Origin: a virus
Lineage: Duplodnaviria; Heunggongvirae; Uroviricota; Caudoviricetes
DNA length: 16,643 nucleotides
Reading direction: 5' to 3' (one strand)
Virus record (IMG/VR): IMGVR_UViG_2548876934_000006
Location: 1-16,643 of that record
The notes under the pieces were generated by a model, which worked only from the letters and a program-made list of their open reading frames with translations, was not told where the DNA came from and searched no databases. Of this stretch, positions 1,384-7,052 are shown one piece after another. The stretch's first letter is position 1; each line of letters begins with the position of its first letter. The position numbers and the translations under genes were made by a program.

Positions 1384-1516
1384 TTTTTGGGACTCCTGGC
1401 TGATTAAGTATGTCGATAAGGCGTTTCCATCCGTCACGTAATTTACGGGTGATTCGTTCAAGTAAAGATTCGGAAGGGCAGCCAGCAACAGGCCACCCTG
1501 CAATGGCATATTGCAT
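1352..1516 (-). CDS. cIII: cIII (FtsH/HflB protease inhibitor), 54 aa; absent from the ORF track because of its size
   Basis: Reverse complement from 1516 reads ATGCAATATGCCATTGCAGGGTGGCCTGTTGCTGGCTGCCC..., translating [54 protein letters not shown], then stop (TAA, 1354..1352). A GGAG Shine-Dalgarno sits just upstream on the minus strand. Confidence 0.85.
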   Translation of the reverse strand: MQYAIAGWPVAGCPSESLLERITRKLRDGWKRLIDILNQPGVPKNGSNNYGYPD

Positions 1517-1588
1517 GGTGTGCTCCTTATTTATACATAACGAAAAACGCCTCGAGTGAAGCGTAATTGGTATGCGGTAACGCCGCGC

Positions 1589-3698: not shown

Positions 3699-5051
<1,353 letters not shown>

Positions 5052-5059
5052 GACATTCC

Positions 5060-5091
5060 CGCTCTTACACATCCCAGCCCTGAAAAAGGGC
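5060..5091 (+). promoter_or_regulatory. nutR: nutR (boxA CGCTCTTA plus boxB GCCCTGAAAAAGGGC)
   Basis: CGCTCTTA at 5060-5067 and the hairpin GCCCTGAAAAAGGGC at 5077-5091, the lambda nutR arrangement; followed by the tR1-like AT-rich region before cII. Confidence 0.8.
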
Positions 5092-5170
5092 ATCAAAATA
5101 AACCACACCTATGGTGTATGCATTTATTTGCATACATTCAATCAATTGTTATCTAAGGAAATACTTACAT

Positions 5171-5464
5171 ATGGTTCGTGCAAACAAACGCAACGAGGCT
5201 CTACGAATCGAGAGTGCGTTGCTTAACAAAATCGCAATGCTTGGAACTGAGAAGACAGCGGAAGCTGTGGGAGTTGATAAGTCGCAGATCAGCAGGTGGA
5301 AGAGGGATTGGATTCCAAAGTTCTCAATGCTGCTTGCTGTTCTTGAATGGGGTGTCGTCGACGACGACATGGCTCGATTGGCACGACAAGTTGCTTCGAT
5401 TCTCACCAATAAAAAACGCCCGGCGGCAACCGAGCGTTCTGAACAAATCCAGATGGAATTCTGA
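5171..5464 (+). CDS. cII: cII transcriptional activator, 97 aa
   Basis: From the ATG at 5171: [97 protein letters not shown], matching lambda CII. Shine-Dalgarno TAAGGAAAT upstream. Confidence 0.9.
5180..5193 (-). promoter_or_regulatory. pRE -35 region with CII-binding TTGC-N6-TTGC repeat (leftward promoter inside the cII 5' end)
   Basis: Minus strand reads TTGCGTTTGTTTGC (plus 5180-5193, GCAAACAAACGCAA), the CII recognition repeat overlapping the cII start as in lambda. Confidence 0.5.
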
Positions 5465-5496
5465 GGTTATTACTGGAACTATCAACAGGAGTCATT

Positions 5497-6153
5497 ATGA
5501 CAAATACAGCAAAAATACTCAACTTCGGCAGAGGTAACTTTGCCGGACAGGAGCGTAATGTGGCAGATCTCGATGATGGTTACGCCAGACTATCAAATAT
5601 GCTGCTTGAGGCTTATTCAGGCGCAGATCTGACCAAGCGACAGTTTAAAGTGCTGCTTGCCATTCTGCGTAGAACCTATGGGTGGAATAAACCAATGGAC
5701 AGAATCACCGATTCTCAACTTAGCGAGATTACAAAGTTACCTGTCAAACGGTGCAATGAAGCCAAGTTAGAACTCGTCAGAATGAATATTATCAAGCAGC
5801 AAGGCGGCATGTTTGGACCAAATAAAAACATCTCAGAATGGTGTATCCCTCAAAACGAGGGAAAATCCCCTAAAACGAGGGATAAAACATCCCTCAAATT
5901 GGGGGATTGCTATCCTTGTGATAAATACGAGTTTGGAAAGCCAGTTGATCATCAGCAGGTAATCTGGAACCGCGAACGAATCAGCAACTCACAAGACGGG
6001 ATCGTGAAAGAAATCAAAGGCGCGGACACGTTCATCTTTGGTCATACGCCAGCAGTGAAACCACTCAAATTTGCCAACCAGATGTATATCGATACTGGCG
6101 CAGTGTTCTGCGGAAACCTCACATTGATTCAGGTACAGGGAGAAGGCGCATGA
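5497..6153 (+). pseudogene. in-frame fusion: replication initiator O N-terminal about 139 codons joined to the C-terminal about 79 codons of the nin-region Ser/Thr protein phosphatase; deletion scar that removed O 3' end, P, ren and most nin genes
   Basis: N-terminal part [136 protein letters not shown] matches lambda O. C-terminal part [76 protein letters not shown] matches the lambda phosphatase C-terminus as I recall it. The stop overlaps the Q start (ATGA at 6150-6153), the normal phosphatase/Q arrangement. Confidence 0.8.
5846..5915 (+). repeat. ori-lambda iterons (three intact copies plus a truncated fourth) inside the O remnant
   Basis: TCCCTCAAAACGAGGGA (5846-5862), TCCCCTAAAACGAGGGA (5866-5882), ATCCCTCAAATTGGGGGA (5889-5906), then TTGCTATCC (5907-5915), where the lambda fourth iteron would continue CTCAAAACAGGGGGA. 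The lambda AT-rich ori segment is absent. Confidence 0.75.
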
Positions 6154-6773
6154 GACTCGAAAGCATAGCTAAATTTCATTCGCCAAAAAGCCCGATGATG
6201 AGCGACTCACCACGGGCCACGGCTTCTGACTCTCTTTCCGGTACTGATGTGATGGCTGCTATGGGGATGGCGCAATCACAAGCCGGATTCGGAATGGCTG
6301 TATTCTGTGGTAAGCACGAACTCAGCCAGAACGACAAACAAAAGGCTATCAACTATCTGATGCAATTTGCACACAAGGTATCGGGGAAATACCGTGGCGT
6401 GGCAAAGCTTGAAGGAAATACTAAGGCAAAGGTACTGCAAGTGCTCGCAACATTCGCTTATGCGGATTATTGCCGTAGTGCCGCTACGCCGGGCGCAAGA
6501 TGCAGAGATTGCCACGGTACAGGCCGTGCGGTTGATATAGCCAAAACAGAGCTGTGGGGGAGAGTTGCTGAGAAAGAGTGCGGAAGATGTAAAGGCGTCG
6601 GTTATTCAAGAATGCCAGCAAGCGCCGCATATCGCGCTGTGACGATGCTAATCCCAAACCTTACCCAACCCACCTGGTCACGCACTGTTAAGCCGCTGTA
6701 TGACGCTCTGGTTGTGCAATGCCACAAGGAAGAGTCAATCGCAGACAACATTTTGAATGCGATCACACGTTAG
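6150..6773 (+). CDS. Q: late gene antiterminator Q (lambda-type), 207 aa
   Basis: Translation [98 protein letters not shown]... with the CRDCHGTG and CGRCKG zinc-binding cysteines, matching lambda Q. Confidence 0.9.
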
Positions 6774-6815
6774 CGCCATGATTGCCACGGATGGCAACAT
6801 ATTAACGGCATAATA

Positions 6816-6850
6816 TTGACTTTTTGAATAACTTTGGGGAAACTTGACAC
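6816..6850 (+). promoter_or_regulatory. late promoter pR' with overlapping qut region
   Basis: TTGACT (6816-6821), 17-nt spacer TTTTGAATAACTTTGGG, then GAAACT (6839-6844), followed by TTGACACCAATAATGGGC. Layout parallels my recollection of lambda pR' (TTGACT, 17 nt, TAAATT). Lies about 45 bp downstream of the Q stop. Confidence 0.6.
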
Positions 6851-7052
6851 CAATAATGGGCGTTTTTTACATGTCATTGATGAGTCTCAATAACCTGCCG
6901 CCGAGTAGTTTTTATGCCCTGAGTTGTACTTGTACGGTAAACATGCTGGCTGCTATGTAATAGAGTTTTTTTAGCCTGTAACCTCTTGACGGCATTGAAT
7001 TGCTTTTGTTATGAGTTGTAAGCCAATGTTATCATCTTGTATTGGGGTGGTT

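Follow-up and report, generated by a model that had tools for sequence, protein, structure and literature searches.

The replication origin of phage lambda (ori-lambda) is composed of four iterons and then an A+T-rich region of ~40 bp; opening of this origin depends on O bound to each iteron, and the minimal replicon requires pR-cro-cII-O-P (reviewed in PMC5043065). Here we describe a locus in a prophage remnant of Escherichia coli, at which the gene O with its intragenic origin has been cut short and joined in frame to the end of ninI, the phosphatase gene of the nin region. As in lambda and 434, the native ribosome-binding site of O, iterons 1–3 and the neighbouring oop/pO are kept at this locus; unlike in those phages, however, residues 141–299 of O, iteron 4 and the A+T-rich element are missing, and the prophage has no P. 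Also, the last 80 residues of the fusion correspond to residues 142–221 of 434 NinI and, like lambda NinI (PDB entry 1G5B), include the GHT motif, but the N-terminal 141 residues are lacking, and the set of metal-binding motifs is accordingly incomplete.

Among the described deletions, those of the lambda nin region (nin5) are comparable in that the tR2 equivalent and the nin genes between P and Q are gone here as well; O, P and ori are nonetheless retained in the nin5 phages, which are viable, whereas the present deletion starts inside ori. The defective lambdoid prophages of attaching/effacing E. coli such as the Sp prophages of O157 Sakai, of which PMC2669165 describes the defects in general, are likewise multiply deleted carriers of type III effectors, but the O–NinI junction is undescribed there, and in our remnant every morphogenesis gene is gone. 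Finally, the oop-ori plasmids and the exclusion phenomena of Hayes et al. (PMC3349717) resemble our locus, where oop-pO-tO and iteron DNA are present, the A+T-rich segment is not, and the cryptic prophage lacks P. The differences are that ITN4 has been lost here and that the locus is a single chromosomal copy with the repressor present.

The O–ninI reading frame and its parent genes

The window, i.e., the whole stretch of 16,643 nucleotides analysed here, contains the following features around the fusion (no strand is assigned to the iterons and the junction).

4100–4732, minus strand: 434-type cI repressor, 210 aa, intact (434 annotation)
4780–4808, plus strand: pR, TTGACA-17-GAAAAT, within the OR operators (434 annotation and promoter scan)
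4836–5051, plus strand: 434-type cro (434 annotation)
5171–5464, plus strand: cII (positions 11675–11968 of locus L001 minus 6504)
5411–5497, minus strand: oop antisense RNA gene, kept beside the truncated ori (434 annotation)
5497–6153, plus strand: O'-'NinI fusion ORF, 218 aa (RefSeq WP_024222065.1, "replication protein")
5497–5915, plus strand: O-derived segment, O codons 1–140, containing the complete Pfam Phage_rep_O domain
5845–5862: ori iteron 1 (ATCCCTCAAAACGAGGGA), intact (OL657226.1 annotation transferred via the 99.9% alignment)
5865–5882: ori iteron 2, intact (OL657226.1 annotation transferred)
5889–5906: ori iteron 3, intact (OL657226.1 annotation transferred)
5911–5915: TATCC microhomology, the deletion junction; 5912–5915 are the sole remaining bases of iteron 4
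5916–6153, plus strand: ninI-derived segment, which together with TATCC makes NinI codons 142–221 and the stop; 100% identical to ninI of phage 434
6150–6773, plus strand: lambda-type antiterminator Q, 207 aa, the start of which overlaps the stop of the fusion ORF in ATGA

The fusion ORF begins with ATG and has an AGGAG ribosome-binding site upstream. When compared base by base with the gene O of phage 434 (OL657226.1), nucleotides 1–419 of the ORF have a single mismatch (nt 176, giving K59R), and the last 243 nt have none against ninI of the same record. Exactly 5 nt, TATCC at 5911–5915 of the window, belong to both matches. The first-pass annotation of this DNA had read the ORF as the N-terminal part of lambda O followed by the C-terminus of the phosphatase, and had placed the switch inside the fourth iteron at TATCC, with TTGCTATCC at 5907–5915; the alignment to 434 O and ninI confirms both the composition of the ORF and these coordinates, and resolves the overlap to 5 nt. 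It is the parent that has to be revised: the genes are indeed a lambdoid O and a lambdoid phosphatase, but those of a 434-like phage instead of lambda. Also, TATCC is present in both parents as supposed, whereas the continuation TATCC-TTT is not found; the window reads TATCC-TTG as 434 does, and lambda has TATCCC-TTT. More precisely, both the window and 434 continue after the junction with TTG-TGA-TAA (Cys-Asp-Lys), and lambda has CTTTGACGAA there. At the level of the protein, residues 1–140 are those of 434 O apart from K59R, and residues 139–218 are those of 434 NinI 142–221. The Tyr-Pro encoded by TAT-CCx is common to O and NinI, with no difference in codon phase between the two, and the fusion is hence in frame; the prior for an in-frame outcome is 1 in 3.

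A megablast search with positions 5000–7000 of the window against 50,697 phage records gave matches split in two parts, namely 5000–5915 to cro-cII-O of phage 434 at 99.9% and 5911–7000 to ninI-Q of lambdoid phages (97.2% for phage 2B8 and 96.3% for lambda), and no contiguous match across the O/ninI junction was found in any of these records. The tail is thus phosphatase-derived, no phage record has the fused gene, and relatives keep the arrangement O-P-ren-nin genes-ninI; the two observations that would have spoken against a fusion, namely a tail of other origin or intact phages encoding the protein as a single gene, were not made.

In the fusion protein, the Pfam domain Phage_rep_O (PF04492) is matched by residues 22–115 over profile positions 2–95 of 95 (E=6e-36), and the score of 123 bits against the cutoff of 28.7 bits identifies the origin-binding domain of O. 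We take the boundaries of this domain to be 19–139, but the limits used here rest on Pfam. The half of O comprising residues 141–299, which presumably recruits P-DnaB, is not represented; the alignment to O ends at residue 140, ahead of the C-terminal P-recruiting domain (~160–299). As for the tail, no metallophosphoesterase (Metallophos) domain of Pfam was detected in the fusion even at E≤1, and the sole real match in a PDB sequence search, which found no solved structure of O, was the lambda phosphatase 1G5B. The tail aligns to residues 142–221 of 1G5B with ~95% identity, GHT motif included, and the identity begins at Tyr142-Pro143, three residues after His139 (VICHADYP). The ligands of 1G5B, which we take to be Asp20, His22, Asp49, Asn75 and His139, and the catalytic His76 are in the missing part, as are presumably the DXH, GDXXDR and GNHE motifs within the N-terminal 141 residues of NinI; among the active-site residues, only His186 (GHT) and Arg162 would, on the same assumption, be left in the tail. 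Because most of the active-site residues lie in the missing part, the NinI tail of ~80 residues is to be regarded as catalytically dead, in agreement with the first-pass annotation. An AlphaFold2 model based on a 14-sequence alignment has a mean pLDDT of 42, with four helices only, all within residues 22–101, and a pLDDT of ~30 in the tail, and is of too low quality to be used. O is short-lived as a substrate of ClpXP, the recognition being at its N-terminus, and this end is preserved in the fusion. Most likely, the product of the fusion ORF is a functionless by-product, and it is probably unstable when made.

Extent of the deletion and its consequences

In the genome of 434, the two copies of TATCC are at 35538–35542 (O) and 39416–39420 (ninI), so that 3,878 bp, the interval 35543–39420, are missing from the window. 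While the equivalent points in lambda (39100–39104 and 43647–43651) span 4,547 bp, we take the shorter figure as the size of the deletion because the parent is 434-like (imm434), as indicated by the bases after the junction that match 434 and not lambda. The undeleted order in 434 is O-P-ren-terminator-ninB-dam-ninE-ninF-ninG-ninI; the undeleted arrangement is also found in lambda, and the sibling prophage of strain TB4019 has the same gene order up to ninG. What has been lost is O codons 141–299, P, ren, ninB, the Dam-type methylase gene, ninE, ninF, ninG and ninI codons 1–141, together with a small ORF and the annotated terminator, the tR2 equivalent (434 37035–37065). An early reading that the C-terminal part of O, P, ren and most of the nin genes had been deleted is therefore borne out by the comparison with 434. 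Furthermore, the deletion reaches into the origin. The 434 record OL657226.1 annotates four 18-bp gpO sites, which we transferred to the window with an offset of 3872 from locus L002; iteron 4 would be expected at 5912–5929, but only ATCC (5912–5915), the start of the iteron, is left. Accordingly, 14 of its 18 bp and the A+T-rich segment have been lost from ori, with ninI DNA in their place.

The junction is seamless, without inserted bases. A deletion mediated by an insertion sequence or by site-specific recombination was considered and rejected, as neither IS, att nor filler sequence is present at the junction. When 200,000 random pairs of breakpoints were drawn from the 434 sequence (the left one in O, and the right one downstream to Q), a junction homology of at least 5 bp was obtained in 0.59% of the pairs (P = 0.0059). 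Also, the single strand of the parental ori is prone to form a hairpin at the breakpoint (dG −12.2 kcal/mol, z = −5.4 against shuffled sequences), and the breakpoint is at the loop/stem boundary of the hairpin in which the facing halves of iterons 3 and 4 pair. The hairpin and the microhomology would fit either slipped mispairing or short-homology end-joining, without being proof of either. The shared TATCC, the lack of filler and the presence of undeleted relatives are in any case what characterizes a short-homology deletion, as which the event can be classified from its sequence features.

In terms of replication, three iterons and 4 nt are what remains of ori-lambda. The remnant should be unable to initiate theta replication, and we strongly infer the loss of autonomous replication, as the first-pass annotation had also proposed, since the C-terminal half of O, P, iteron 4 and the A+T-rich region required for it are all absent. 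It is nonetheless plausible, as was suggested there, that the residual O domain and the iterons could still bind DNA. Given that head and tail genes are missing as well (see below), the loss of replication is one of many defects of this prophage. As regards transcription, the sole annotated intrinsic terminator between P and ninB has been removed, as in nin5-like deletions, and no intrinsic terminator on the plus strand is predicted between cII and Q (5000–6800 of the window); transcription from pR may therefore get to Q without N, as it does in nin deletions.

Between pR and Q, only cro, cII and the fusion ORF are now present. The immunity region (3873–5915) is 99.9% identical to that of 434, and a pO-like promoter (5522–5494) and the tO hairpin (5440–5413) were located at oop by the 434 annotation and a promoter/terminator scan. 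Transcription of the fusion ORF would start at pR; since repressor, operators and pR are all intact, the ORF should not be expressed in the uninduced cell as long as the 434 cI is active.

Several further features were noted in this part of the window. A scan with Rfam found no family at the junction, the only match at the gathering threshold being the cIII thermoregulator (Lambda_thermo; 1471–1529, minus strand, 88.5 bits). The gene next to cI (3699–4175, minus strand; 8203–8607 in L003/L004) corresponds to the "repressor protection" gene (hex) of 434; it is annotated with 103 aa in the closed genome described below versus 134 aa in most other assemblies, its start site being uncertain. Downstream of Q, the pR'/qut region (6800–6850) is lambda-type with the −35 sequence TTGACT kept, and GAAACT is read at the position of the lambda −10 sequence TAAATT. 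The lambda homology stops near the start of pR', and the sequence is again 434-like from 6909.

Distribution of the fusion and the continuing decay

The window is 99.99% identical, with two differences, to the closed chromosome NZ_CP148385.1 of E. coli Z1323HEC0011 (human, South Korea), and none of the others among 5,426 complete E. coli genomes has the full ORF. The exact protein nevertheless occurs on 107 indexed contigs and in 197 collection blocks (NCBI, ENA and Logan), one of the sources being a metagenome scaffold, and only four single-residue variants exist, three of them with Lys59 as in 434 O. We read ten of these loci, and all of them have the same decayed lambdoid remnant, adjoined by torS in nine; the tenth (L010) ends at the contig edge on the torS side and differs at its right end. 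The remnant, of ~22 kb, is arranged as int-xis-exo-bet-gam-kil-cIII-N-cI-cro-cII-fusion-Q, followed by a SASA esterase, lysis remnants and the effector genes nleB2, nleC', nleH, cif, an NleG-like gene and espJ, in this order. Beyond fragments of tail fibres, no head or tail genes were found in the remnant, and all the morphogenesis genes are gone. A laboratory construct, such as one of the imm434 nin vectors, was rejected as the source because the remnant is integrated beside torS and carries effector genes, and because its carriers are of clinical and animal origin.

In the window, the effector cargo extends from 11007 to 16062 and beyond, and is interleaved with fragments of tail-fibre and tail-fibre-assembly genes: nleB2 at 11007–11987, a truncated nleC at 12021–12311, nleH at 12620–13510, cif at 13734–14558 and the NleG-like gene (DUF1076) at 15451–16062. 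In L001, espJ and an IS1 lie directly past the end of the window. At 14545 within cif, a run of 8 A is read versus 7 in NZ_CP148385.1, giving a Cif of 274 aa versus the annotated 282 aa; the cause is either a sequencing difference in the homopolymer or a true frameshift close to the 3' end. A C/A difference from the same chromosome is located at 8773 in the esterase gene.

The ORF is identical in 10/10 loci. Over the surrounding 6.2 kb, six of the ten have no difference and one has a single difference; in the other three, higher ungapped counts coincide with mapped indels or rearrangements. The exact parent, i.e., a sequence with 100% identity at both flanks and an intact interval, was not found in the 5,426 complete E. 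coli genomes and the 50,697 phage records; relatives match either the left side (434 and TB4019) or the right side (434 ninI, and 2B8 ninI-Q with 97%), and never both at 100%. The right flank of the fusion pairs a 434-type ninI with a lambda-type Q, for which phage 2B8 offers a match of no more than 97% identity.

Among the loci sharing the fusion, furthermore, the late region has suffered separate deletions with junction overlaps of 0, 2, 2, 3, 4, 6 and 10 nt. Since these deletions differ from locus to locus, the O–ninI event is older and ancestral in the clonal lineage, and the same process of decay has continued since then. The second deletion in the window itself is an example: 1,261 bp are missing in comparison with locus L004, and the SASA esterase is joined to rrrD at 9835–9840 (ORF 8312–9892) with an overlap of 6 nt, whereby the 3' end of the esterase gene, the holin gene and the 5' end of rrrD have been lost and the esterase is 526 aa versus 616 aa. 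Also, the sibling prophage in strain TB4019 (L013, NZ_AP038817.1), the flanks of which are 100% identical, has retained O, P, ren and the genes from ninB to ninF, while ninG continues directly into the middle of Q (...CGCTGGACT|ATCGGGGAAATACC; L013 ~9290–9300); an independent deletion has removed ninI and the N-terminus of Q there.

Damage to the replication module is, furthermore, common in other E. coli prophages. The examples, all of them outside the window, are the proteins P0025, P0012, P0014, P0015, P0051, P0069 and P0072; in P0025, an in-frame fusion of O to the Dam methylase (370 aa, 6 contigs) lacks the C-terminus of O, P, ren and ninB, and in many other O genes iteron units have been gained or lost, with a frameshift or a longer gene as the result. 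The iteron array within O thus looks like a recurrent site of rearrangement.

Explanations of the fusion

Taken together, the ORF is most probably the scar of one short-homology illegitimate deletion in a 434-like prophage of E. coli. A RecA-independent deletion would have joined TATCC at the left edge of iteron 4 in O to TATCC 3.9 kb downstream in ninI, and it took away the remainder of the origin, that half of O which binds P, the gene of the helicase loader P itself, ren, tR2 and ninB through ninG. An in-frame chimera was left, with the complete origin-binding domain of O, a linker encoded by the iterons and 79 residues of a phosphatase devoid of most of its active site. This would have been a single event early in a clonal E. 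coli lineage of the attaching/effacing type; further, independent short-homology deletions then hit the late region, and the remnant would persist because of its cargo of type III effector genes. The O–ninI fusion is, in other words, a real but ordinary product of prophage decay: chimeric ORFs made by short-homology deletions in cryptic prophages are well known as a kind, and the O–NinI junction is an undescribed instance of it. What speaks against this reading is that the exact parent was missing from the complete genomes and phage records searched; also, an in-frame ORF, the kept ribosome-binding site, the overlap with Q and a protein invariant in most assemblies would be expected under selection as well, the lineage being too clonal to tell.

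Selection might, for example, have favoured the deletion itself because it disarms a trapped prophage while the effector cargo is kept: in-situ replication on SOS induction, which is lethal ("replicative killing"), and the sequestration of DnaB by P would both have come to an end. Indeed, replication of an induced, trapped lambda fragment was described as "very lethal to the cell" (PMC3349717), and the same module has been hit independently elsewhere, as in the O::Dam-methylase fusion of P0025 and the iteron-frameshifted O genes. The prophage is, however, not necessarily trapped with its int and xis intact; the sibling in TB4019 keeps O and P while other genes have been lost, and kil, as well as the holin and lysozyme genes in some lineages, persisted after the deletion. 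We regard an adaptive loss as plausible but less likely than a neutral one.

Far less likely is the domestication of the fusion locus as a decoy against phages, in which the O domain devoid of P binding would occupy the iterons of incoming or co-resident rep-lambda phages or oop and the iterons would silence them in trans; with pR derepressed, the O domain or the cassette of oop and three iterons would then act as a replication decoy and block the theta replication of superinfecting or co-resident phages with lambda/434-type iterons, a co-option that we rate as about equally improbable. Such a use would be in line with the completeness of the Phage_rep_O domain, with the preservation of the native ribosome-binding site and of the reading frame, and with the intact oop, pO and tO, but the frame would be kept in one of three cases anyway, and O is expected to be short-lived through its N-terminus (ClpXP). 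The carrier genome, furthermore, has no second copy of this type of O to act on, and the locus, placed downstream of pR in a 434 immunity region that is intact, should be off unless SOS is induced. According to Hayes et al. 2012 (PMC3349717), plasmids with oop and ori iterons, in which the A+T-rich part is dispensable, block rep-lambda phages, and derepressed P-defective cryptic prophages exclude such phages ("non-immune exclusion"). The block by the plasmids required ITN3-4 and multicopy (PMC3349717), however, whereas ITN4 has been destroyed and the locus is single-copy here, unlike what is described for the oop-ori inhibition phenotype (IP).

An artefact of assembly, considered since mis-assembly is frequent in the repeat-rich lambdoid prophages, or a modular gene that some living phage carries naturally is hardly credible: no evidence for either was found, the same junction is present in a closed chromosome, in many independent assemblies of NCBI, ENA and Logan and in a metagenome scaffold, and a contiguous match across it occurs in 0 of 50,697 phage records.

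In conclusion, the O–ninI fusion, when explained as the scar of a short-homology deletion, raises no new biological question; it would do so only if the locus acted as a decoy, in which case nature would have its own version of non-immune exclusion and of the "inhibition phenotype" described for plasmids. To name a chimera unable to support replication a "replication protein", as RefSeq does (WP_024222065.1), is misleading, which matters for automated calls of prophage "intactness". The locus also provides a clean marker, and one that can be dated, for a single clonal lineage of E. coli with effector genes, and it documents a step-wise decay of the prophage, the replication module having been lost first and the lysis region then by lineage-specific deletions with junctions of 0–10 bp.
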